DNA from: Armatimonadia bacterium
Lineage (GTDB): Bacteria > Armatimonadota > Zipacnadia > Zipacnadales > UBA11051
Direction: 5' to 3'
DNA: 34,444 nt
Assembly: GCA_039683575.1 (NCBI GenBank)
Contig: JBDKRC010000350.1
Coordinates: 1 to 34,444, forward strand
Shown here: in pieces, positions 156 to 34,444 of the stretch
How the letters are laid out: each line of letters starts with the position of its first letter
How positions within the stretch are numbered: the first letter of the stretch is position 1
Notes under the pieces: model-generated
The model's input: only the letters and a program-made list of their open reading frames with translations
What the model was told of the DNA's origin: nothing
Databases searched by the model: none
Program-made: the position numbers and the translations under genes

Positions 156-905
156 GTACCAGAGTCTTCCACGGCCACGGCCGTCCGCGAAGCTCTCGTC
201 GCCGCGGCGCCCAGCTTGCGCCCGATGGTGTGGGAACAGCCGGGGCAGCCGCTGTTTGCCGCTCTGCGGAGCGGTGCCGATGTGCCTGGCGCCACTATCC
301 GATCATGTGCCGAAGCAGCCGTCGCCGCCGCCGTCGCAGCTCGAGGCGGCGCCGTGGAGACCGTCGTAGCCATGGCTGACGACAGGATGTCCGGGCTAGC
401 CTCGCTGGCCGGCGCGACCGGTAGCGCATACCTGCTCGCCGACCTGCCGCAGGCCGGCAACCTCGGCACTGCCACGCTCGGCCTCAAGCAACTCCGCAGC
501 CTGCTCGGTAGCCTGCAACTGCCGGAAGCTCAGATACCGCCCGCCTCCCCGGCGCCCGCACAGGCCGCCCGGGAGGGGGACCTGCCTCCGGCGGCAGTGG
601 CTGCGCTGACCGCGGATACCCGCCTGCAAGCCTACTCTCGCGAGGGCCTCATCCTGGTATTGCCCGCTCAGGCTGATCCCGCGGTCGTGGCTGGCGCGGC
701 CGAGTCGCTGCTCAAAGCATGGCAGGCAGTCGATGCAGATACCAACCGCCTCCTGATCACAGGGCCTACCGGTGGATTGGTGATCGCCAAACTGGCACAA
801 GGTCTCATCGCCGCCATGGTGGCCGCTACCCCCGGTGAGATTGCCGCACACAACGTGCACGTTAAGAAGCTGTTATCGGCAATCGGCCCGGAGGCTGGCG
901 CATGA
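3..905 (+). CDS. 5'-truncated protein: (VVEP)n linker followed by two degenerate roadblock/LC7 (MglB-like) domains
   Basis: The frame is open from the window start, so the true start lies upstream. The C-terminal part has alpha/beta segments ending AGNLGTATLGLKQL and LLITGPTGGLVIAKLAQGLIAAMV, resembling roadblock domains (recognised by eye). Its stop overlaps the next ATG (ATGA at 902-905). Confidence 0.6.
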   Translation, partial: VEPVVEPVVEPVVEPVVEPVVEPVVEPVVEPVVEPVVEPVVEPVVEPVVEPVPESSTATAVREALVAAAPSLRPMVWEQPGQPLFAALRSGADVPGATIRSCAEAAVAAAVAARGGAVETVVAMADDRMSGLASLAGATGSAYLLADLPQAGNLGTATLGLKQLRSLLGSLQLPEAQIPPASPAPAQAAREGDLPPAAVAALTADTRLQAYSREGLILVLPAQADPAVVAGAAESLLKAWQAVDADTNRLLITGPTGGLVIAKLAQGLIAAMVAATPGEIAAHNVHVKKLLSAIGPEAGA

Positions 906-1705
906 CTTTGGGACGCCGCGAATCATGGCCCTCGCTCATAATCCTCGGCGTGGGCTTGCTCACGCTGGCGCTGGTGCTGAAAGCGAATCAGCAGGACCTG
1001 CCGCTGCAGCCACCATGGCTCATGGCCATTCCCGTGGTGCTCTACGTGCTTGTGCAGGCAATCGCCCAGGGCCCCACCGTTGGTGCCTTGTTGGGCGTGG
1101 TAATCATGATTGTGGCACACCTGTTCCTGGCGCTGTTGATGGGGCTCGGCTACTCGGCAGTTGAGGGTCAGCCGCGGGCGGCATATGATGCGTTGCAGAG
1201 CGGTCTATGGGCTTACGTGCCGGGCACGGCGCTCCAATTTGCCTTCGCATGTCTCACCGGCGTAGTCTTCGCCGCCTGGCACACGAACCGTCCAGCGTCA
1301 GTGGTCCAGCCCCTGGAAGGGGCCCCGCAGCCGGTGCTGCTGCCGGATCTACAGCAGGCACCCACCGCGGCGGCAGCCGTTGCCACCGCTGCGGCGGTAC
1401 CGGGCGTGGGTGCGGCGTTGCTGGCCTCGGCCGACGTCGTGGCCGCCGGCGCGTGGGAGCGGGACCCCGGAGCCGCGCTGGCCCGCATACAATCCCTCGG
1501 CAGCCGCACCGGTCATGGACTGAACTCGGTCTCACTTGATCGTGTCTCCTTACTCGTCCGCTCGGAGCCAGGCAGGCTCGCGGCGCTCCTGGTTGGTAGC
1601 GAGTTGAGCCGCCCTGCAGGGAACGATCTGCTCCGCGATCACTGGGCTGCGGCAGAGCGGCTGCCCGAGCAGGGAACGGCCGAACAAGGAGGGGCCGAGC
1701 TTTAG
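902..1705 (+). CDS. Membrane protein (about 4 TM helices) with a C-terminal roadblock-like domain
   Basis: Four hydrophobic stretches in residues ~10-126. The C-terminal AVPGVGAALLASAD resembles the roadblock N-terminal pattern (xPGVxxAxxxxxDG). Translationally coupled to the upstream ORF. Confidence 0.65.
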   Translation: MTLGRRESWPSLIILGVGLLTLALVLKANQQDLPLQPPWLMAIPVVLYVLVQAIAQGPTVGALLGVVIMIVAHLFLALLMGLGYSAVEGQPRAAYDALQSGLWAYVPGTALQFAFACLTGVVFAAWHTNRPASVVQPLEGAPQPVLLPDLQQAPTAAAAVATAAAVPGVGAALLASADVVAAGAWERDPGAALARIQSLGSRTGHGLNSVSLDRVSLLVRSEPGRLAALLVGSELSRPAGNDLLRDHWAAAERLPEQGTAEQGGAEL

Positions 1706-1718
1706 CCGGCCCAAGGCG

Positions 1719-1895
1719 ATGAGCAAGCTACAACGCTGGTGGCAGCAGTGGCGCAGGCGTGCCAGGCAGCGCCTGCAGCAGATGAAGGCCCCGGGCAGGT
1801 TCCTGTGCGATAGCTGCCGGTATGACTACGGCAATTCCTGTCGCCGCCCCGGCCGCCCCAACGTTACGAATTGTCCCGACTATCGTAGAAGGTAA
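1719..1895 (+). CDS. Small (58 aa) basic Cys-rich putative metal-binding protein
   Basis: Own translation from ATG1719 to TAA1895: MSKLQRWWQQWRRRARQRLQQMKAPGRFLCDSCRYDYGNSCRRPGRPNVTNCPDYRRR. Has C-x2-C-x7-C-x10-C and fills the gap between 1705 and the rpe ATG at 1912. Confidence 0.75.
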   Translation: MSKLQRWWQQWRRRARQRLQQMKAPGRFLCDSCRYDYGNSCRRPGRPNVTNCPDYRRR

Positions 1896-1911
1896 CAACA
1901 CAAACAACGCT

Positions 1912-2580
1912 ATGCGCAATCTACTCATCTCTACCAGCATGCTGTCCGCCAATTTCACTGTCCTTGGCGAGGAAGTGAAGTCTCTCGAGGCTGCCGGCGC
2001 TGACTGGCTGCACTGGGACTGCATGGACGGGCATTTCACCGACCAGCTGACTCACGGGCCTCTCGTCCTCAAGGCCTTGCGGCCGCTGACTACCCTGTTC
2101 TTTGACGCCCACTTGATGCTCACCAATCCTGAGCCGCAAATACCGCTCTTCGTGGACGCCGGGGCAGACGGCATCTCCATCCACATCGAGACCACCGACG
2201 AGCCGGCGAGGCTGCTCGATGACATCCGGGCTCGCGGCTGCAAGTCCTGCCTGACCGTCAACCCACCGACGCCACTGGATGACATCGAGCGCTTGCTGCC
2301 GCACTCCGACGTCATCATGCTCATGGGAGTTATCCCGGGCTATGCGGGGCAGGCCTACCATCCCGAGACCACCGACCGCATCCGTCAGGTGCGCGCGCTG
2401 ATCGACAAAGCGGGACTGCCGACGATGATCGAGGTGGACGGGGGAGTGAATGGTACCACGGCGGACGAGGTGATCGGCGCTGGCGCTGATGTGCTGGTAT
2501 CGGCCAGCTTCGTGTTCAAGCACCCCGAAGGATACGGCGGGGCGATCCGGCGGCTGAGGGAGATTGCGGCGGGGCTGTAG
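1912..2580 (+). CDS. rpe: Ribulose-phosphate 3-epimerase
   Basis: Motifs SMLSANF, LHWDCMDGHF, DAHLM, MGVIPGYAGQ, IEVDGGVN. Start moved to ATG1912 because family homology begins there. Confidence 0.95.
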   Translation: MRNLLISTSMLSANFTVLGEEVKSLEAAGADWLHWDCMDGHFTDQLTHGPLVLKALRPLTTLFFDAHLMLTNPEPQIPLFVDAGADGISIHIETTDEPARLLDDIRARGCKSCLTVNPPTPLDDIERLLPHSDVIMLMGVIPGYAGQAYHPETTDRIRQVRALIDKAGLPTMIEVDGGVNGTTADEVIGAGADVLVSASFVFKHPEGYGGAIRRLREIAAGL

Positions 2581-2589
2581 TATTCCCTG

Positions 2590-2662
2590 CGCGTGGTAGG
2601 CATGCTCCGCATGCCGGACTAACCAAACGGGATTCCGGCATGCGGAGCATGCCTGCCACGCG
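2590..2662. repeat. Inverted REP doublet (REPIN-like)
   Basis: CGCGTGGTAGGCATGCTCCGCATGCCGGA (2590-2618) and its inverted copy (2634-2662), 28/29 identical. Each carries the hairpin GGCATGC-TCC-GCATGCC preceded by GTGG. Confidence 0.85.
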
Positions 2663-2679
2663 ATCCAAGCCCAAAAACA

Positions 2680-2713
2680 AAAGTGGGAGGGCTCCTCAGA
2701 GCCCTCCCACTTT
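2680..2713. terminator. Bidirectional intrinsic terminator between convergent rpe and oxidoreductase
   Basis: AAAGTGGGAGGGCTC-CTCA-GAGCCCTCCCACTTT, a perfect 15-bp stem with an A-run on the left and a T-rich run on the right. Confidence 0.85.
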
Positions 2714-2732
2714 CTCTATTGTCTTTGGAGCC

Positions 2733-3863
2733 CTACAGCAGTTCTTCCGGCTTCACATACAGCGGCGGAAGCGGGTTGGGCCGCACTAGCGCGCCACCAT
2801 TCTCGTAGGACTCGATGATCGCGAAGGTGTACTCGATCACCGCGAGAGCGTCCCGGCCCGAACCGCGCAGTTCGTGCTTCGGGACCTTGTTGGTGATGTC
2901 CTCGAGGAAGCCCGTGATGCGCCGGTTGAAGGTCTGGCCGAAGTCATGGGTCCCTGATTCGAAGATCTCCGGCGCGCCGGGCTCGCCAGGATTGATGAAG
3001 CCGGGCTTGCCGGGGCCGCGAGCCGCGTCCGGGGCGCTCCAGAAGGTCGTCCGCTCGATGCAGTTCTCGATACAGAACGTCCCCTTCGTCCCTGCCACCT
3101 CACAGCTCCACCAGCCGCCCAGGCCGTACGACGCATCCCCGCGCTGGCTGAGCAGATAGCCCACTGTGTCGTTAGCGAACTTCAGATGGATGCTCGCCGT
3201 TGAGAGCATCACATCGCCCACCGAGCGGCGGAAGCCCGGCCGGTTCAGGAACGCCTGCACATGCGTGACATCGCCGCAGAAGTGGCGCATGACGCTGAGC
3301 GGGTGAGTCAGGAACGCCTTGAGGTGGAAGTACGGGAAGTCCTTGATCTTGGGCGAAGTCGGGGCCGCCGCAGTCTCCGGCGCGCCGCCCTGGAAGCCCA
3401 TCTTGCACAGGCAGTAGACCAGTTCCCCAAGCTTCCCCTCGTTCTGGTACTGCTTGGCCTTCTCCGCCGTCGGGGTGAAGTAGTGGTTCAGGTCGCAGCC
3501 GAGGTAGACGTCCATAGCGGTGGCGACGTCCACCATCTCGCGCGCTTCTTCGATGTTGCTCGAGATGGGCTTTTCCACCAGCACGTGCTTGCCCGCTTCC
3601 ATCGCCTGCATGGCGGGCTCGTAGTGCCAGCCACCATTCTCCAACCCGCCCGTCGCACAGTCCACGACGTCCAGTTCCTCGTTGGCGAGCATGTCGTCGA
3701 GGCTGTAATACGCCTTGCACTTGAACTGCTCGGCAGCCTTGTCCGCGCGTTCCTTGACTGCATCGCAGATTGCGACGAGGTCAGCGAGGGGGCTGGCGAA
3801 ATGGGTGGGGGCATGTGAATAGCCAATGCCATTCATGCCGACAATTCCGACTTTGAGAGCCAT
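2733..3863 (-). CDS. Gfo/Idh/MocA family NAD(P)-dependent oxidoreductase
   Basis: Rossmann start KVGIVGMNGIG and the GKHVLVEKP motif. Start at ATG3863 with a GGAGA RBS; the 93-codon extension in the ORF track is not homologous. Confidence 0.92.
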   Translation of the reverse strand: MALKVGIVGMNGIGYSHAPTHFASPLADLVAICDAVKERADKAAEQFKCKAYYSLDDMLANEELDVVDCATGGLENGGWHYEPAMQAMEAGKHVLVEKPISSNIEEAREMVDVATAMDVYLGCDLNHYFTPTAEKAKQYQNEGKLGELVYCLCKMGFQGGAPETAAAPTSPKIKDFPYFHLKAFLTHPLSVMRHFCGDVTHVQAFLNRPGFRRSVGDVMLSTASIHLKFANDTVGYLLSQRGDASYGLGGWWSCEVAGTKGTFCIENCIERTTFWSAPDAARGPGKPGFINPGEPGAPEIFESGTHDFGQTFNRRITGFLEDITNKVPKHELRGSGRDALAVIEYTFAIIESYENGGALVRPNPLPPLYVKPEELL

Positions 3864-4130
3864 GGGATCATCTCCGTTAATGGTTGAGGCGTTGATCGCT
3901 AGTGAACGCTGAGACTGTGCTTGGTTCGCGCCCCGCGCGCCGAGTCCTTCTTTCGACAGCTGGAGGGGCTGAATGATCGCGCCGTTTGCGATCAGCCAGC
4001 CCGCGGGCCGGATGCAAGCCTGCGATCGGGCTGCAGTCTCGCCTTCGGCCCCTCCATGGATCGCGCCGTCTCCGACTACACGCTCGCGGGCCGAACCCCG
4101 AAAATGCGGCGGTAGACGCCAACAAAGGTA

Positions 4131-4160
4131 TTGACACCGCAAGGAAGCCTGATGTATAGT
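4131..4160 (+). promoter_or_regulatory. Sigma70-type promoter of the dcw operon
   Basis: TTGACA (4131-4136), 18-nt spacer, TATAGT (4155-4160), upstream of mraZ. Confidence 0.75.
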
Positions 4161-4170
4161 CAGGCGGCAA

Positions 4171-4195
4171 CGGGAGAAGTTGGGATTTTCTGGGC
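4171..4195 (+). promoter_or_regulatory. MraZ operator: three (T/C)GGG(A/C) boxes at 10-bp period
   Basis: CGGGA 4171, TGGGA 4181 and TGGGC 4191, just downstream of the -10 element. Matches the known TGGG[A/G] 10-bp-spaced MraZ binding repeats. Confidence 0.7.
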
Positions 4196-4228
4196 TATAA
4201 ACGGATCTATAACTCTCCTGCAGCCATC

Positions 4229-4702
4229 ATGCCTGAAACCATCGGTCCCGCAATCCAATCAGTTACAGATGGGCGCTTGACCTTCAAAAAAGCGCACCTG
4301 GAGTACCTTGGTAACCCCGAATGCGTGGACGTGACATTTGGCCCCGGTCGTAGCATCTTGATCCACAACCCGCAGCGGCGGCAGGAACTGCTCGACATGC
4401 TGCTGGCTGACGAGGAAGGGCTGCTTGACGAGGACCAGAACCAGATCGAGCTTCGGCTCGACAGTCTGGCCGACCCGGCGCCCGTCGATGAGCAGGGCCG
4501 GATGCGTATTCCGCCAGTATACCTCAATCGCCTGCGATTGCCAGAGAAAGGCGCAAAAGTTTATCTCGTGCCTCGGCGGCGCAACGGCTGGATCGAGGTA
4601 TGGAGCGAAGCGGAGTTTGACCGGATGATCGACGCGCCCGCGGATGTGTGGCAGGTAGCGCTGAACCGGTTGGTACTGCGACGGCGTGGCACGCAGGTGT
4701 AA
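4229..4702 (+). CDS. mraZ: MraZ family transcriptional regulator (divergent)
   Basis: First dcw gene, 157 aa. Second SpoVT/AbrB repeat VDEQGRMRIP and C-terminal IEVWS are present; the first repeat is degenerate (SVTDGRLTF). Confidence 0.8.
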   Translation: MPETIGPAIQSVTDGRLTFKKAHLEYLGNPECVDVTFGPGRSILIHNPQRRQELLDMLLADEEGLLDEDQNQIELRLDSLADPAPVDEQGRMRIPPVYLNRLRLPEKGAKVYLVPRRRNGWIEVWSEAEFDRMIDAPADVWQVALNRLVLRRRGTQV

Positions 4703-4717
4703 ACAAGACTTGATGGG

Positions 4718-5650
4718 ATGACAATGGTACAGCATCAGCCCTGCATGCTTGAAGAGACGTTGCAGTGGCTGGACCTGCAGCCGGGGCAGACAATCGTTGA
4801 CATGACAGTCGGGCTTGCAGGACATGGCCTGGCCATACTTGAGAAGATCGGGCCAGCCGGGCGGTACCTCGGACTGGAATGGGATCCGGAGACGCTGCAG
4901 CAGGCCCGCGAGAGACTTGGCGACGCGCCGAATGTGACCCTTTTCAACGAGAGTTTCACGGAACTGCCGGCCATCCTGACCGAAGCCGGCGTGGAGCAAG
5001 TCGATGGGGTGCTTCTGGACGCTGGAGTGAACCTCTGGCAACTCACGGCCCCGGAGCGGTCTCTGTCGCAGGACAGCGAAGAGGGCCTGGACATGAGGAT
5101 GCGGCGGGATCGGGGAGTGCCGGCGGGCGTGATTGTGAACGAGGCGAGTGAGGACGAGTTGCGCGGGGTGCTGCGGGCGACGCTGGAGGAGCGGGAGGCA
5201 CGGAAGATCGCGAGAGCGATTGTGCGGGCGAGAGAGCGAGAGCCGATCCAGACGACGCGACAGCTATCGTACGTGATCCTTGGCACACGGACGCCGGAGG
5301 CCAGGCGCAAAGGGCGGCAACCCGCACCCGCGCTGCTGGCGTTCCGGATCGCGGTCAACGCCGAGCTTGAGAACCTGGCCGAGGGGGTCAGGGTAGGGGC
5401 GCAGGCGTTGCGGCCGGGCGGCAGGCTCATAGTACTCACCTTCCATAGCGCCGAGTACCGGGTGGCGCGGGAAACGATGAGGGTCCTGGCCGGAAGGTGT
5501 ACCTGCCCACCGCGATTGCCGTGTGTATGCGGGGCGAAGGCGACGGTGAAGATACTCACACCGAAGCCACTGAAGCCCGAGGAAGCGAGTCTGAGGCGGA
5601 GCGGGCCACAATGCCGCAGTTGCCGTTTGCACGCAGCAGAGGCGATTTGA
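4718..5650 (+). CDS. rsmH: RsmH/MraW-family methyltransferase (16S m4C1402 family), strongly divergent
   Basis: Follows mraZ. Recognisable DMTVGLAGH, LDMRM, EEREARKIARAIV, RIAVNAEL, TFHS motifs and a CTCPPRLPCVC insert. Confidence 0.9.
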   Translation: MTMVQHQPCMLEETLQWLDLQPGQTIVDMTVGLAGHGLAILEKIGPAGRYLGLEWDPETLQQARERLGDAPNVTLFNESFTELPAILTEAGVEQVDGVLLDAGVNLWQLTAPERSLSQDSEEGLDMRMRRDRGVPAGVIVNEASEDELRGVLRATLEEREARKIARAIVRAREREPIQTTRQLSYVILGTRTPEARRKGRQPAPALLAFRIAVNAELENLAEGVRVGAQALRPGGRLIVLTFHSAEYRVARETMRVLAGRCTCPPRLPCVCGAKATVKILTPKPLKPEEASLRRSGPQCRSCRLHAAEAI

Positions 5651-5654
5651 CAGG

Positions 5655-6201
5655 TCTTTCGAGCTTTCTTAGCGCGTGGTGCGGGCTTCTCGCCCGCTCA
5701 ATGAGGCGGTACAAGCCGCTTTGTCCCGGCGGAAGATAACCGAAAGGTCACAGCTTAAGCCGAAGCACCAAACGCGGGCGAGACGCGCACATCACGCGGA
5801 GTAGAGAGTTTCTGGGGGGAAGGACAAACAGCGGGGGAGAGCACCTTCAGTTTTCCGGGCGCATACCTTGGCCGGAGGCGACCCGGAGTAGGGAAGGAGG
5901 GCAGATCAGGCAGAAGTCACGGTACACACACAACACACTACGGCAACAACCATCGCAGCCTACATCACAGCACTATACACCGCAACCTTCGTAGTCTTCA
6001 TCATAGCAAGTGCCGCCGCTACAGTCAACGCCAAGATCACAGCCCGTCGCGCCTCCGGGTGCGACAATCACACCAACATACCCAGCCTTGACCGCAGCAA
6101 CACTAGCAGCCAAACCGTGACCTGCTGACTGCCCTCCGTCGAATTCAACGGCCCGCTCCCATCTCAATGGTGGGGCGGGCCTGCCGCACTCAATACGCAG
6201 G
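5655..6201 (+). ncRNA. Putative large structured RNA / intercistronic element between rsmH and ftsL (unassigned family)
   Basis: Nested helices found by eye: 5688-5697/5774-5783 (perfect 10 bp), 5673-5681/5790-5798, 5661-5669/5803-5811, hairpins 5703-5722 and ACC-GAAA-GGT 5739-5748, 5854-5862/5878-5887, a ~24-bp helix 5896-5923/6114-6137, a cUCCGg hairpin 6046-6065, and 6151-6180. Mismatches are G-U on the + strand. Confidence 0.55.
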
Positions 6202-6216
6202 TGAGGGAGGGGCCCC

Positions 6217-6657
6217 ATGAACCGGAGCAATAGCCGTGCCAGGAGCATCCATCCCCCTGCCGCCACAAGGCGACCCGCCCCTGCACCGCGCCTATTCCCC
6301 AGACTGCTTCCCATCTTCATTCTCGGCGCCATGGCGATTCTGCACATCCTGTCACTGGCCAGGCTGTCAGAGCTCGAGTGCGAAAGCCGCCGGCTGGACC
6401 GCCTGATTCTGGAACAGAAGACTATGGAAGCCGAATTGCTGCGTGAGCACCGGGCGCTGGTGAGCAATGCCCGGCTTACTACCTACGCCCAGAGCAGGGG
6501 TATGGTCGCGCCGCAGAGTGTGAAGACGCTGCAGGTCGGGCTGCTGCCCAGCCCGCAGGTATACTGGCAGCTTCCAGAAGAGCCCGGGCGTGAGCGGCTG
6601 GGCGAGGGCCTACAGCTTGGTGCCCTCAGCGCTGCAGAGCCTCGAGAACTGCCTTAG
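6217..6657 (+). CDS. ftsL: Cell division protein FtsL-like
   Basis: Lies between rsmH and the PBP gene. Basic N-terminus, one TM helix, coiled coil, and an RLTTYAQSRGMVAP motif like FtsL's 'RIEKIAxxxLGM'. GAGGGAGG RBS. Confidence 0.75.
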   Translation: MNRSNSRARSIHPPAATRRPAPAPRLFPRLLPIFILGAMAILHILSLARLSELECESRRLDRLILEQKTMEAELLREHRALVSNARLTTYAQSRGMVAPQSVKTLQVGLLPSPQVYWQLPEEPGRERLGEGLQLGALSAAEPRELP

Positions 6658-6759
6658 CGGGGGGTAGTCTCAGCAAACCCATCTTCGTCAAGGAGCCACA
6701 TAACCATGCTTTGCGCCAGCAATGGTGTCGGTAACTACGGGCGGGTGGCTTGAGGAGGG

Positions 6760-8529
6760 ATGGCGTTGGCAGCCACGCAACCACGTTACCGCCCGGAGTT
6801 GGAGCGAAGCCGGTGGCTTTCTGGCCTCCTCCTGGCTGGTCTGGTCCTCGTCTTCCTTCGACTGTTTCAGATCCAGGTCCTCAAGCACGACTACTACGTC
6901 GCCGAGGTCGGCCCGAGGCTGGAGTCCAAATATGCGGCCCCGGCCCCCCAGCCGGGGTCCATTCTTGCTCGTACCGGCGAACCCCTCGCCGAGAGCCTGC
7001 TGCTTGATACCCTCTTCGCTGACCCCCTCTTCATGGCTCGCCACGAGCGGCGTGAGAGCCCTCAGGCCGTGGCCCAGCAACTCGCGCCGCTGATTGGCCG
7101 TCCCGCCGAAGACATCCTCGCCGACCTCACCCGCCGACAGGACACCAACTTTGTCGAACTGGCACGCTGCGTGCCGCACGATGTTTCAAGCCAGATTCGG
7201 GCGCTACGGATCAAAGGCCTCGGCCTGAAGCCTGAATGGAAGCGCGAGTACCCGCACGGCACGCTGGCATGCCACCTCGTGGGCGGGCGCGACAGGTCAC
7301 ACAATGCTCTGTCAGGGCTGGAGTATCGCTACCGGCTGATACTCGACGGCAATCCCGGGGCCAACCTGCCATCACAGGACCCGCTGGGGCTCGACAATGC
7401 TGAGAGCCGACGTGTCGGGGACTCGCCGGGCAAAGACCTGCTGCTGACCATCCACCCGGACCTCCAGCGGCAGGTGGAGCGCGAAATGGACGTGCTGTGG
7501 CGGCGTGAGCGGCCCAAGTGGACTGCCTGCGTCGTCGAGGACGTCACAACAGGCGCCATCGTCGCGATGGCGGCCCGTCCGGGATACGACCCGAATGACT
7601 ACGTAAGAGGCAAACGCGCCGCAGGCTGCAAGTGGTCTGTCGTGCCCGAGGGCGTGACCCGCAACATTCCGGTGACCGAGGCAGTGGAGCAGGGGAGTAC
7701 CTTCAAAATCCTGCTGGCTGCGGCGGCGCTGGACTCCGGGGCAGTAGTGCCCTCCTCCACCTTCCACTGCGGCGGGACCATCAACATGGGAGGCCGGCCC
7801 ATCAGTTGCTGGGGCGAGTGGGCTGCCAAAGGGCATGGCAGTCTGGATATAGGTGGAATGCTGGCCCAGTCCTGCAACGTCTGCGCCGCGCAGATAGCCG
7901 TGAGGCTCGGAGCCAAGCGATATTGTGAATTCCTGCGCAAAGCCGGTATCGGGATCGACCCCGAAGCGGGATTCTCAGCCGAGGCCAAAGGCCGTCTCAA
8001 GCCAGCCGAAGGCCTGCGCCGGCGCGATCTGGGGACCATGGGCTTCGGGCAGAACGTGAGTTGCAGTGGCCTGCAGCTCACTTCGATAGTGTCAGGAATC
8101 GTGAATGGCGGTATAATGAAGCACCCACACATCCTGGCGGCGGCCCTCAATCGGGATGGCACGGTGTTCCGCAAGACAGTGGTTTCCGAGAAGCAGATTT
8201 GCTCCCCGCAGACCTCAGCCATAATCAGACAGATGCTGGAGAACGCCGTCCAGAATGGCACCGGCAGACCGGTGAAGATGCCGGACTTCCGCGTGGGTGG
8301 CAAGACGGGGACGGCCCAGCAGTGGGACCCGCAACTGGGGCGGTACACCGACCGGTACATGATGTCCTTCATCGAGGTCGCGCCGATTGATGTCCCCCGC
8401 TATGTGATCTGGGTGGCCTGTAGCGACCCCAAGGTTGGGCGTCACGGTTCAGACACGGCAGCGCCGGCGGCCAAGCACATCGCAGAATATGCACTGCGAC
8501 AGCTTACGCCGCCACAGCCTGCGCAGTGA
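6760..8529 (+). CDS. ftsI: Class B penicillin-binding protein (FtsI/PBP3-like transpeptidase)
   Basis: N-terminal TM plus RLFQIQV; catalytic motifs GSTFK (SxxK), SCN (SxN) and KTGT; no PASTA domain. Confidence 0.92.
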   Translation: MALAATQPRYRPELERSRWLSGLLLAGLVLVFLRLFQIQVLKHDYYVAEVGPRLESKYAAPAPQPGSILARTGEPLAESLLLDTLFADPLFMARHERRESPQAVAQQLAPLIGRPAEDILADLTRRQDTNFVELARCVPHDVSSQIRALRIKGLGLKPEWKREYPHGTLACHLVGGRDRSHNALSGLEYRYRLILDGNPGANLPSQDPLGLDNAESRRVGDSPGKDLLLTIHPDLQRQVEREMDVLWRRERPKWTACVVEDVTTGAIVAMAARPGYDPNDYVRGKRAAGCKWSVVPEGVTRNIPVTEAVEQGSTFKILLAAAALDSGAVVPSSTFHCGGTINMGGRPISCWGEWAAKGHGSLDIGGMLAQSCNVCAAQIAVRLGAKRYCEFLRKAGIGIDPEAGFSAEAKGRLKPAEGLRRRDLGTMGFGQNVSCSGLQLTSIVSGIVNGGIMKHPHILAAALNRDGTVFRKTVVSEKQICSPQTSAIIRQMLENAVQNGTGRPVKMPDFRVGGKTGTAQQWDPQLGRYTDRYMMSFIEVAPIDVPRYVIWVACSDPKVGRHGSDTAAPAAKHIAEYALRQLTPPQPAQ

Positions 8530-34167: not shown

Positions 34168-34320
34168 GGTGAGGCCTCCGTGCAGCGCGTGTGGGGCGGA
34201 TTGGGTGGTGGTGCTTCAAGAAGACAACAAAACCACGCCGGCAGAAGTTGCACCGACATGGCATAACCCGATGAAGATTAGGCGAATTGGGGGGAAGCGT
34301 CAAGCTCCAACAGGGCGGTC

Positions 34321-34444
34321 TGTCGCTGCCAAGTAGTAATGTCCCTCTTGTGCAAAGTAGAAATGTCCCTTCGGCGAACTGAAGGGTATGAAGTTACTGA
34401 TGAGCCACAAGGAACGCAACTACAGCAAGGTACTCGAGCAGCTT
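34321..34444 (+). mobile_element. Left end of an IS1202/ISNCY-like insertion sequence (truncated by the window)
   Basis: Starts with TGT at 34321. Two subterminal direct repeats, AAGTAG(T/A)AATGTCCCT (34331-34346 and 34355-34370), precede a transposase-like start. Confidence 0.7.
34388..34444 (+). CDS. Transposase N-terminus (partial), IS1202/ISNCY-like
   Basis: ATG34388 after GAAGGG gives MKLLMSHKERNYSKVLEQL..., resembling the MSxKExxRxxVL start of these transposases. Only 19 codons are visible. Confidence 0.6.
   Translation, partial: MKLLMSHKERNYSKVLEQL

Follow-up and report, generated by a model that had tools for sequence, protein, structure and literature searches.

The best reading of positions 5851-6137 of the window (the whole stretch of DNA analysed, 34,444 nucleotides) is that they form a gene-like element for a structured, plus-strand RNA of about 290 nt, previously undescribed, which lies between rsmH and ftsL in the dcw operon and consists of a hairpin (P1), a long-range closing helix and a repeat-bearing loop. 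We lean, without great assurance, toward the view that this element gives a new abundant and stable RNA, made from the division operon and placed under antisense control. If this is true, a highly expressed RNA gene is retained between rsmH and ftsL throughout a clade whose members are mostly uncultured, and a new RNA family can be searched for in metatranscriptomes. Moreover, the repeated word, the closing helix and the antisense promoter would then offer a testable link between division genes and RNA-based control.

The rsmH-ftsL Gap and Its Coding Content

The genes around the element are laid out as follows.

4229-4702, plus strand: mraZ
4718-5650, plus strand: rsmH, 16S rRNA methyltransferase gene (310-aa ORF)
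5651-6216, plus strand: rsmH-ftsL gap (566 nt)
6204-6213, plus strand: Shine-Dalgarno sequence of ftsL, GAGGGAGGGG
6217-6657, plus strand: ftsL-like gene (146-aa ORF; small single-span membrane protein with a coiled coil)
6760-8529, plus strand: ftsI/PBP

The rsmH gene was detected in 30 of 31 relatives at E<=0.001, and the conserved element always follows it directly. Because a Pfam search gave no match for the ftsL-like gene, this gene is named from its position and architecture; tblastn found relatives of it in 15 of 29 loci, the window's own locus excluded.

The sequence-only reading had seen no convincing start-codon gene in the 566-bp gap, and this still holds. The largest plus-strand start-codon ORF wholly contained in the gap has 42 aa (5676-5804, inside the repeat pair described below), and the stop-to-stop frames of 78-110 aa have no start codon. 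Four gap ORFs searched against Pfam gave no match, and the spacers of relatives carry 1- and 2-nt indels, with stops in every frame. A protein-coding gap was rejected on these grounds: no plus-strand start-codon ORF exceeds 42 aa, frames are unconserved and Pfam matches are lacking. The 5851-6137 region is non-coding for protein.

A Dispersed Repeat at the Start of the Gap

Folding of the gap begins with a long rod, called Domain I in the sequence-only reading and taken there as part of one large structured RNA. Its arms hold two copies of a repeat.

5661-5697 with 5774-5811, plus strand: rod (Domain I) in the minimum free energy (MFE) fold, including TCTCGCCCGC paired with GCGGGCGAGA
5673-5697, plus strand: first copy of a REP-like 25-nt palindromic repeat, in the 5' arm of Domain I (2 mismatches to the modal 25-mer)
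5774-5798, minus strand: inverted, degenerate copy of the repeat, in the 3' arm (4 mismatches out of 25 to the reverse complement of the modal 25-mer)

The modal 25-mer, a palindrome with a 7-bp stem and a 3-nt loop, occurs 86 times exactly in the genome and at 171 sites on 84 contigs when up to 3 mismatches are allowed. Elsewhere in the genome, 8 other inverted pairs and 31 direct pairs of the repeat lie within 200 nt of each other. The spacer between the two copies of the window (5698-5773, 76 nt) is unique, with no second genome copy. When the gap was used as a DNA query in 40 relatives, only the 25-nt repeat was matched, and Domain I as a whole is unconserved there. Thus, 5661-5811 is a lineage-specific inverted doublet of a REP-like dispersed palindromic repeat, which would have been inserted directly after rsmH in this lineage. 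The doublet is structured, yet it stands outside the conserved RNA, and the inclusion of Domain I in that RNA is not borne out.

In its properties, Domain I agrees with REP, REPIN and BIME elements: the unit is a short imperfect palindrome of 25 nt in many dispersed copies, found single, in tandem or as inverted doublets that fold into long hairpins, as the pair of the window does with its rod. Unlike in those systems, the repeat flanks no Y1-transposase locus (none of the 7 PF01797 loci of the genome has the 25-nt repeat within 1.5 kb) and the unique spacer of the window doublet, at 76 nt, is unusually long.

These repeats raise the question of whether the entire gap is mobile DNA, a MITE or a REP cluster with incidental folding. 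The two 25-mers do belong to a 171-site repeat, and other short repeats, of several families, form tandem arrays in this genome. Outside the two 25-mers, however, nothing in the gap recurs in the genome, which refutes the idea for 5812-6216, and 5851-6137 is orthologous and syntenic in relatives; we regard mobile DNA as an explanation of the whole gap as extremely improbable. The many genome-wide copies that the sequence-only reading had named as a sign of a MITE are therefore present for Domain I, and are not found for 5812-6216. Genome scans call for caution here: the hairpin that stands out most in this gap is a mere genomic repeat.

Folding of the Gap

The extensive pairing reported from the sequence alone was recovered. 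The plus strand of the gap has an MFE of -224.3 kcal/mol (z -5.05; none of 100 shuffles folds as well), with all the features that had been named present in the MFE fold; the minus strand folds with z -2.49. For 5846-6140, the plus-strand z is -3.56. Downstream of the repeat doublet, the following parts are distinguished.

5853-5888, plus strand: hairpin P1 (Domain II of the sequence-only reading) in the MFE fold, preceded by a conserved U-run (5851-5854)
5896-5923, plus strand: 5' arm of the closing helix, forming about 24 pairs with 6114-6137 in the MFE fold; G-rich, Shine-Dalgarno-like
5924-6113, plus strand: loop of about 190 nt, G-poor and C/A-rich, with AYCRCAGCA words
5954, 5966, 6038, 6093 and 6105, plus strand: starts of the NRCAGC cores in the loop
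6028-6000, minus strand: predicted sigma-70-type promoter, with -35 TTGACT (6028-6023), 17-nt spacer, TG extension and -10 TATGAT (6005-6000)
6114-6137, plus strand: 3' arm of the closing helix, C-rich, containing CCCUCC
6150-6181, plus strand: variable hairpin of the MFE fold, between the element and the ftsL ribosome-binding site

The sequence of the 6150-6181 hairpin is unconserved in relatives. The CCCUCC of the 3' arm could alternatively pair with the ftsL Shine-Dalgarno sequence (6204-6213). Taken alone, the best contiguous long-range helix of the window is unexceptional, being reached by 5 of 30 whole-spacer shuffles, so that the weight of the argument rests on the comparison with relatives.

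Conservation and Covariation of the Element

Among 37 same-order genomes, 34 have the element layout downstream of rsmH (one of the others is partial and two are unclear); so do 3 of 11 genomes from other orders of the same class and none of 20 from other classes. It is thus conserved across an order-level clade and three further families. Spacers measure 360-525 nt in 12 of the 13 family-f1 relatives in which ftsL was found, that of the 13th (G009) being ambiguous owing to upstream in-frame starts. The element is single-copy in its own genome: a scan for second copies, in the form of YRCAGC-rich or G-poor windows, led to nothing but antisense strands of genes and tandem repeats of other kinds. 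A search with the RsmH protein returned only distant RsmH genes from many phyla, at 44% identity or less, with no usable spacers.

In cross-family comparison, where the best helix was picked at each locus and the counts carry that selection bias, the closing helix was found in 26 of the 28 same-order loci scored first (25 clear, plus G023, partial, with the helix and few repeats; two family-f7 loci are unclear). It has 8-23 contiguous pairs and encloses a loop of 130-245 nt with 15-29% G. It is also present in all 9 further same-order loci. The sequence of its arms varies by genus and their complementarity is kept. When whole spacers were shuffled, the top helix beat all 30 shuffles in 14 of the 28 loci. 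A hairpin is found at the P1 position in most relatives.

The formal covariation test rests on five related sequences (g1/g2), because MAFFT left P1 out of register across families; in those cross-family alignments the arms were out of register as well, and RNAalifold returned 0-6 pairs. Among the five, 84.0% of the cells are paired versus 70.8% in shuffles, a value that none of 500 shuffles reaches, and 16 pairs are changed on both sides versus 6.8; slid controls give 35-49% paired. P1 contributes 9 pairs, of which 6 have both partners changed (89.7% of cells paired), and the closing helix (helix 3) contributes 11 pairs with 4 double changes (90.9% paired). In g3/g4, 5 of 13 predicted pairs are compensatory. 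In these alignments, P1 and the closing helix covary. A covariance model built from the five g1/g2 sequences recovered those five and one weak match.

Domains II and III, proposed earlier as an RNA element, thus survive comparison, with no match in Rfam 15 and with compensatory changes in the relatives that keep them. The sequence-only reading had asked for the spacers of related genomes to be aligned; this comparison gave a layout kept in 34 of 37 same-order genomes and helices that covary among five sequences.

Repeated Words in the Loop and Strand of the RNA

Across 38 loops, the plus strand carries 194 NRCAGC words versus 14 on the minus strand, with a median of 5 and a maximum of 12 per loop. 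Their spacing peaks at 12 nt (35 cases, versus 11 at 11 nt, 9 at 13 nt and 9 at 24 nt). Loop base composition is A.31, C.33, G.21 and U.15. Predicted unpairedness at the repeats is not above that elsewhere (0.47 vs 0.46). The 12-nt phased repeats are absent from the sequence-only reading. MraZ was considered as a binder of the loop repeats and rejected: the three repeats of the mraZ promoter region read (C/T)GGGN, are spaced by 10 nt and bear no likeness to the loop word.

The count of G-U cells (17) versus A-C cells (8) favors a plus-strand RNA. So does the 69-nt stretch upstream of the 5' arm, which holds P1 and is more stable as plus than as minus strand in 22 of 27 loci, though mostly no more stable than shuffles (mean z -1.18; z<-2 in 6 of 27). 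The closing helix is without strand bias, the plus strand being the more stable in 11 of 27 loci.

It could be argued that the loop is a coding relic, that is, a decayed duplicate of the ftsL 5' end (leader, N-terminal tail and membrane span) whose helix and period were inherited and which is functionless beyond transcription. One frame of the window's loop indeed reads hydrophobic, and the 12-nt period equals four codons. Moreover, in G094 and G118, which belong to other classes, AUCGCAGC-like words occur in the membrane-span codons of the real ftsL, and a long helix (13 bp and 17 bp, respectively) pairs the start region of that gene with those codons. A relic is nevertheless hard to reconcile with a layout maintained over at least 10 families without an open frame, with compensatory changes in the helices, with a promoter conserved within the loop and with very high RNA accumulation (see below); we judge it very unlikely.

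A Predicted Promoter on the Opposite Strand

The sigma-70-type promoter at 6028-6000, also absent from the sequence-only reading, matches the consensus at 10 of 12 positions and is the sole promoter-like site in 5550-6300. Its predicted start lies near 5993, reading towards rsmH. Equivalent predicted promoters score at least 10 in 23 of 38 loops, versus 16 of 1900 shuffled loops, with spacers of 17 nt (18 loci) or 18 nt (5 loci) and a TG in 22 of the 23. All 14 family-f1 loops have one. It is missing in 15 of the 38 homologues, namely in families f3, f6, f7 and f10-f12 and in part of f4. As judged from these patterns, the window's family and several others probably have a near-consensus sigma-70 promoter within the loop, on the opposite strand.

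The functional product might then be a G/U-rich small RNA of the minus strand, starting at about 5993 and covering, in complement, the repeats, the 5' arm and P1; proteins would then bind the DNA at the repeats that lie upstream of the promoter. The extended -10 promoter with its fixed 17-18-nt spacing, so rare in shuffled loops, speaks for such a product; a strong promoter would also account for high RNA levels, and in both RNA runs the depth peaks in the bin that directly follows the predicted start (5919-6025). Several points make it quite unlikely. The 15 homologues that are devoid of the promoter still have the closing helix and, for the most part, P1 and the repeats as well, and a transcript from 5993 would contain one arm only of the covarying closing helix. 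Deep RNA contigs also cover 6000-6103, upstream of the start. The transcript from 5993 to 5840 folds no better than shuffles (z -0.89) and no terminator follows, a scan of 5550-6300 having given no terminator-like site. Finally, the G-U versus A-C counts and the stability of the 69-nt P1 stretch favor the plus strand.

RNA Abundance

Abundance was read from RNA runs X3 and X4, from one wastewater sample, and DNA runs X1 and X2, as the summed depth of assembled contigs. In X3 and X4, this depth, which gives neither strand, ends nor true level and may include RNA of close relatives, is 1,171 and 2,326 for 5812-5918, 9,293 and 12,431 for 5919-6025, and 6,550 and 9,053 for 6026-6132. The repeat pair and the genes mraZ, rsmH, ftsL and ftsI have depths of 0-23. 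The DNA runs are flat (3.6-8.5). RNA-run contigs lying wholly within 5950-6103 have depths of 326-4,584, and one at 5881-5940 has a depth of only 16. The deep region spans both sides of the minus-strand promoter, and neither strand alone explains it neatly. Adapter-like loose ends of contigs (5822, 5862, 5991-6004 and 6084-6121) were rejected as RNA ends, since they occur likewise in low-depth sequence, at 4714 and 5133.

In this one RNA sample, the RNA of the element accumulates far above its neighbors, which fits a processed non-coding RNA better than a plain leader. No plus-strand promoter was found in a scan of 5550-6300; a depth hundreds-fold over rsmH therefore needs either very unequal stability or an unrecognised promoter.

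A cis-acting leader or attenuator of ftsL, whether a regulatory 5' UTR, a Rho loading site or a switch masking the ribosome-binding site, would explain the abundant fragment as a stable product of decay or termination, trimmed to the closing helix. Wherever the element occurs, it directly precedes ftsL; its 5' arm is Shine-Dalgarno-like, and the complementary 3' arm could pair with the ftsL Shine-Dalgarno sequence; the start-region helices of ftsL in G094 and G118 point the same way. A U-run follows the 3' arm in G002, G003 and G014. Rho utilisation sites are C-rich and G-poor, as is the loop (C.33, G.21), in which a pyrimidine-C step recurs every 12 nt. Against these points stands a loop depth hundreds-fold over both rsmH and ftsL, above that of a usual leader fragment. 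As for an attenuator made of a hairpin and a U-run, 5550-6300 has no terminator-like site and the U-run follows the closing helix in some relatives only. Specific AYCRCAGCA words, and not composition alone, are conserved. We hold a leader to be improbable, while giving it some weight. Of the two roles offered by the sequence-only reading for control of the division genes, a new cis-regulator or a processed non-coding RNA, the second is thus strengthened by the depth in the RNA libraries, and a plain leader fits less well.

Proposed Mechanism

For the stable RNA that we favor, it can be proposed that it is made within the dcw operon transcript, then cut out and trimmed back to P1 and the closing helix. 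Cleavage by RNase III at the closing helix, or a cut of the RNase E type at the U-run, would fit. The excised RNA would persist as a stable RNA and could act as a multivalent platform for many copies of a factor that binds single strands, much as CsrB and CrcZ do among sponge RNAs. This RNA may be tuned by the antisense transcript, whose sequence is the complement of P1, the 5' arm and the 5' half of the loop. If the closing helix opens, its C-rich 3' arm may also become available to cover the ribosome-binding site of ftsL.

As to the bound factor, CsrA was rejected: it is found in none of 14 family-f6 genomes, where the RNA is present, versus 3 of 4 family-f15 genomes, where the RNA is absent, and the loop word is not GGA. 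Hfq appears to be the only partner candidate with any support, as a weak lead. The presence of the RNA tracks Hfq (PF17209) across families: among 46 genomes, whose relatedness makes them non-independent and the evolutionary events few, 31 have both, 8 neither, 6 the RNA only and none Hfq only. The distal face of Hfq recognises ARN triplets. A conserved motif of this kind was rejected, as the window's loop has no run of three or more ARN triplets and 16 of the 38 loops have none.

A more specific and distinctly tentative proposal, which we think improbable as a whole, is that this class-wide, very abundant dcw-operon RNA is a multivalent decoy for Hfq or another global RNA-binding factor, presenting up to a dozen AYCRCAGCA sites in 12-nt phase within one closed loop, with an antisense promoter as a switch in many lineages. 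If it were true, the dosage of ftsL and the divisome would be tied directly to global post-transcriptional control.

Comparison With Known RNAs

What is known of how the dcw cluster is regulated concerns mainly MraZ and promoters. At the level of listings and abstracts, the literature gave no paper on an RNA between rsmH and ftsL. With Rfam 15, no part of the gap matched at gathering score, the best rows at E<=10 having 12-20 bits versus thresholds of 41-59, which is chance level, and the loci of 20 relatives gave no match. The element belongs to no Rfam family of that release, in keeping with the earlier failure to match it to known RNA classes. The actinobacterial mraW motif (RF01746) is also an RNA motif at the mraZ-rsmH end of the dcw cluster; unlike the element, it lies upstream of mraW, and it has no match in the gap or in the 20 relatives.

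In type I toxin-antitoxin modules such as hok/sok, a long-range fold-back helix closes the sense RNA and a strong antisense promoter lies in its 5' part, two traits that are found in the element. Unlike them, the element is chromosomal, sits in a division operon and has no conserved toxin frame: the hydrophobic frame of the window has no start codon, and the relatives have stops and frame shifts. Moreover, the antisense promoter is absent in 15 of 38 homologues.

The element also resembles 6S RNA (RF00013), which is abundant, stable and structured, with a closing stem around a large open region, and its own open region holds promoter-like hexamers. It was rejected as the 6S RNA of this genome, since a canonical 6S RNA is encoded at another locus (G000:C254:1058-1254, 66 bits); a canonical SRP RNA is likewise encoded elsewhere. 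Unlike the element with its loop of about 190 nt, 6S RNA is a rod with a central bubble. Moreover, the hexamers of the element read properly only on the opposite DNA strand and have a fixed 17-18-nt spacing, which points to a real DNA promoter.

CsrB and RsmZ titrate CsrA, and CrcZ titrates Hfq/Crc. These sponge RNAs use a GGA or A-rich motif instead of AYCRCAGCA, and many small hairpin loops instead of one large closed loop with words in 12-nt phase; the element, in contrast, resides within the dcw operon with an internal antisense promoter. What they share with it is to be abundant non-coding RNAs carrying many copies of one short word, and the combination of features in the decoy proposed above would be without a described counterpart among them or elsewhere.

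Organization of the rsmH-ftsL region

The operon is carried by the + strand, where genes and gap are arranged as follows.

4229-4702, + strand: mraZ
4718-5650, + strand: rsmH
5651-6216, + strand operon: gap of 566 nt between rsmH and ftsL
6217-6657, + strand: ftsL-like gene
6760-8529, + strand: ftsI

ORF scanning and a Pfam search revealed no convincing ORF in the gap. The ftsL-like gene is named from its position and architecture; Pfam gave nothing for its protein at E<=0.01, and counterparts in relatives were recovered by tblastn. The region upstream of mraZ (4131-4195, + strand) has a sigma-70-like promoter (TTGACA at 4131-4136 and TATAGT, with 18 nt between them) and, beyond it, three direct (C/T)GGGN repeats spaced 10 nt apart (4171, 4181, 4191), which resemble the MraZ-binding repeats of E. 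coli.

The sequence-only reading had proposed that the whole gap encodes one large structured RNA. Its observation of a structured gap stands, and all the structures that it named were recovered in the predicted + strand fold (MFE -224.3 kcal/mol, z -5.05 versus shuffles; z -2.49 for the - strand).

5661-5697 with 5774-5811, + strand: rod (Domain I)
5853-5888, + strand: hairpin (P1)
5896-5923 with 6114-6137, + strand: long-range helix of about 24 pairs (closing helix)
6150-6181, + strand: hairpin

Domain I is a genomic repeat

When the gap was searched against its own genome, matches were only 25-30 nt long, at many sites, and short BLAST matches covered only 5673-5699 and a weaker patch at 5771-5791. 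The repeat unit, a palindrome of 25 nt, has a 7-bp stem and a loop of 3 nt. The modal 25-mer has 86 exact copies, and 171 sites on 84 contigs lie within 3 mismatches. Two copies fall in the gap.

5673-5697, + strand: repeat copy, 2 mismatches to the modal 25-mer
5774-5798, - strand: inverted repeat copy, 4 mismatches to the modal 25-mer

Elsewhere in the genome, neighbouring 25-mers are paired in inverted (8) or direct (31) orientation. The Domain I rod thus represents an inverted REP-like doublet whose two copies flank a unique spacer of 76 nt. None of the seven Y1-transposase loci of the genome is flanked by the 25-nt repeat, so that the term REP refers to form and copy number only. The rod was not found in relatives, where the first part of the spacer has other, unrelated hairpins. 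Thus, one third of the supposed large RNA is a common repeat. That the locus is repeat DNA and nothing else, as this doublet could suggest, is already excluded for 5812-6216, and we give this view practically no credit.

Several further short repeat families form long tandem arrays in this genome (contig C63, 16180-16404 and ~34200-34440; C81, ~870-1090; C196, 76706-76924). Some are arrays of the same 25-mer, repeating every 44-64 nt, and one is built of a CCGCCCTACAGC-type 12-mer.

A conserved element downstream of the repeat

rsmH was located in 30 of 31 relatives, and ftsL and ftsI were mapped beside it. The rsmH-ftsL spacer is likewise long in family f1: of the 13 relatives with ftsL found, 12 have 360-525 nt, G009 being ambiguous. 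From 5' to 3', relatives' spacers share a variable part, P1 (with UUUYCCG...CGGA at its base) and a G-rich arm, then a G-poor, C/A-rich tract of 130-245 nt in which AYCRCAGCA words abound, and finally a C-rich arm, the complement of the G-rich arm. Arm sequences vary by genus and complementarity is kept. With a simple helix finder, 26 of the 28 loci from the same order showed an uninterrupted helix of 8-23 pairs enclosing the G-poor tract, G023 having this helix and few repeats; the two f7 loci gave no clear picture.

The element also occurs in 9/9 further same-order genomes (one with a bulged helix, seen by eye) and in 3 of 11 genomes from other orders of the class (families f10-f12). The other eight have a short rsmH-ftsL gap without the element, as do 18 of 20 genomes from other classes of the phylum. 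The remaining two, G094 and G118, have a perfect 13-bp helix (L157, 113-253) and a 17-bp helix (L160, 132-283), respectively. These pair the true ftsL ribosome-binding/start region with membrane-span codons, with AUCGCAGC-like words between, and may hint at the element's origin; the closing helix may have an ancestral or a parallel counterpart here.

In the window's genome the element is single-copy. It is non-coding: relatives' versions carry 1- and 2-nt indels and stops in all frames. That the element represents a degenerate duplicate of the 5' end of ftsL seems to us very improbable.

Structure and strand

Covariation of P1, the closing helix and one inner hairpin was assessed on five sequences of genera g1 and g2, aligned by sequence. 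Paired cells reached 84.0%, versus 70.8% in shuffles (0/500 reach 84.0%), and 16 pairs were changed on both sides versus 6.8 in shuffles; with partners slid by 1-3 columns, 35-49% were paired. In genera g3 and g4, RNAalifold gave 13 pairs, 5 of them compensatory. In whole-spacer shuffling (30 shuffles per locus), the top helix outdid every shuffle in 14 of 28 loci, the window not among these. A fixed-window duplex test gave z<-2 in 27/27 loci, a result biased by our own choice of windows. For the P1-holding stretch of 69 nt upstream of the 5' arm, z<-2 was reached in only 6/27 loci, most being no more stable than shuffles. Moreover, cross-family alignments did not keep P1 in register, and a small covariance model did not generalise. 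From these mixed results, the closing helix is well supported and P1 is probable. Comparison of relatives' spacers divides the RNA first proposed: outside Domain I the element is shared and its helices covary in g1/g2, whereas Domain I is absent.

An inner loop hairpin (6043-6066, + strand, GUCGCGCC/GGUGCGAC) has both sides changed in 5/8 pairs among g1 species and is absent from genomes G004 and G001. In g3/g4 (L018-L025, L034), a conserved word, GAACCTTGACAGATAG, lies about 25 nt upstream of P1. It contains a -35-like TTGACA with no matching -10, and part of it pairs with sequence just past the 3' arm, adding an outer helix with covariation between species.

G-U cells outnumber A-C cells (17 vs 8), the P1-holding stretch is more stable on the + strand in 22/27 loci, and folding 5846-6140 on the + strand gives z -3.56; the closing helix is unbiased as to strand (+ more stable in 11/27). 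Taken with the operon orientation, these tests moderately favour a + strand RNA. The counts and the P1-stretch stability argue against a minus-strand RNA as the real product, which we regard as improbable.

RNA abundance

Part of the window is contained in 24 public runs. The best DNA runs contain 0.71 and 0.64 of sampled words and the best RNA runs 0.44 and 0.42, all from one wastewater study. These four were compared over 4100-7300, the two RNA runs representing one sample. DNA depth is flat (3.6-8.5). RNA-run depth is 0-23 on mraZ, rsmH, the repeat pair, ftsL and ftsI, and reaches 1,171/2,326 at 5812-5918, 9,293/12,431 at 5919-6025 and 6,550/9,053 at 6026-6132, these values deriving from assembled contigs in which strand, ends and true level are unreadable and to which RNA of close relatives may add. 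Single contigs wholly within the loop have depths of 4,584 (6000-6103), 3,922 (5950-6011) and 326 (6024-6094); contig 5881-5940 has 16. The contrast with both the flanks and the DNA runs indicates that RNA of the element accumulates far above the operon mRNA. Such accumulation could also concern a mere fragment of a cis-acting leader or Rho site, a reading that we consider rather unlikely.

An internal antisense promoter

Within 5550-6300 a single promoter-like site occurs, on the minus strand, with 10/12 consensus matches.

6028-6023, - strand: -35, TTGACT, then a 17-nt spacer and TG extension
6005-6000, - strand: -10, TATGAT

Read on the + strand, these hexamers are the two best-conserved loop words. 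Equivalent sites score >=10 in 23/38 loops versus 16/1900 shuffled loops; family f1 has them in 14/14 loops, and others fall in f2, f5 and some of f4. Of these 23 sites, 18 have a 17-nt spacer and 5 an 18-nt one, and 22 carry TG, whereas distances to the helix arms range from 34 to 162 nt. A fixed spacer with a variable arm distance is the pattern expected of a real DNA promoter. Transcription from the site would begin near 5993, giving an RNA antisense to P1, the 5' arm and the 5' half of the loop. The site is absent from 15/38 homologues that keep the rest of the element (f3, f6, f7, f10-f12, part of f4), and is therefore an accessory feature. Since RNA is deep on both sides of it, the promoter alone cannot explain the abundant RNA.

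Loop words and candidate partners

Across 38 loops, NRCAGC words number 194 on the + strand and 14 on the - strand. Their spacing peaks at 12 nt (35 cases, versus 11 at 11 nt, 9 at 13 nt and 9 at 24 nt), with a unit of roughly A-N-N-A-U-C-R-C-A-G-C-A. MraZ is an unlikely binder of these words, the mraZ promoter carrying (C/T)GGGN repeats at 10-nt spacing, and CsrA does not co-occur with the RNA. Among 46 genomes, related to one another, 31 have both Hfq and the RNA, 8 neither, 6 the RNA only and none Hfq only. ARN-triplet runs are not conserved in the loops. Hfq is a lead as candidate partner, no more.

In a class-level sample of 61 genomes, Hfq (PF17209) occurs in every sampled RNA-bearing family except f2 and genus g7 of f4, and in 0/8 genomes of f8, f9 and f13-f15, which are without the RNA; CsrA has no such pattern.

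On balance, we lean towards a gene, embedded in the operon, whose + strand RNA is stable and abundant. P1 and the closing helix would bound this RNA, many copies of one single-stranded word would be presented to a putative binding factor and, in many lineages, the internal antisense promoter would counter it. In addition, opening of the closing helix might free the C-rich 3' arm to cover the ribosome-binding site of ftsL. Processing, binding partner and any influence on ftsL are what we infer.

Comparison with known RNAs

As the sequence-only reading anticipated, Rfam 15 matched no family in the gap at gathering scores (chance-level rows only at E<=10), nor anything in 20 relatives' loci. The sole gathering-score match in the window is an Acido-Lenti-1 RNA (RF01687; 33133-33178, - strand; 40 bits, threshold 37). 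Literature listings and abstracts yielded no account of an RNA located between rsmH and ftsL. Canonical 6S and SRP RNAs sit elsewhere in the genome. The claim of a new RNA fails for Domain I, a common repeat, and holds for the part outside it, which is conserved, apparently abundant and free of Rfam matches. The finding was partly right: this remainder represents an RNA locus of the division operon that is new, widely conserved and, it appears, very abundant, and is of more interest than a leader.
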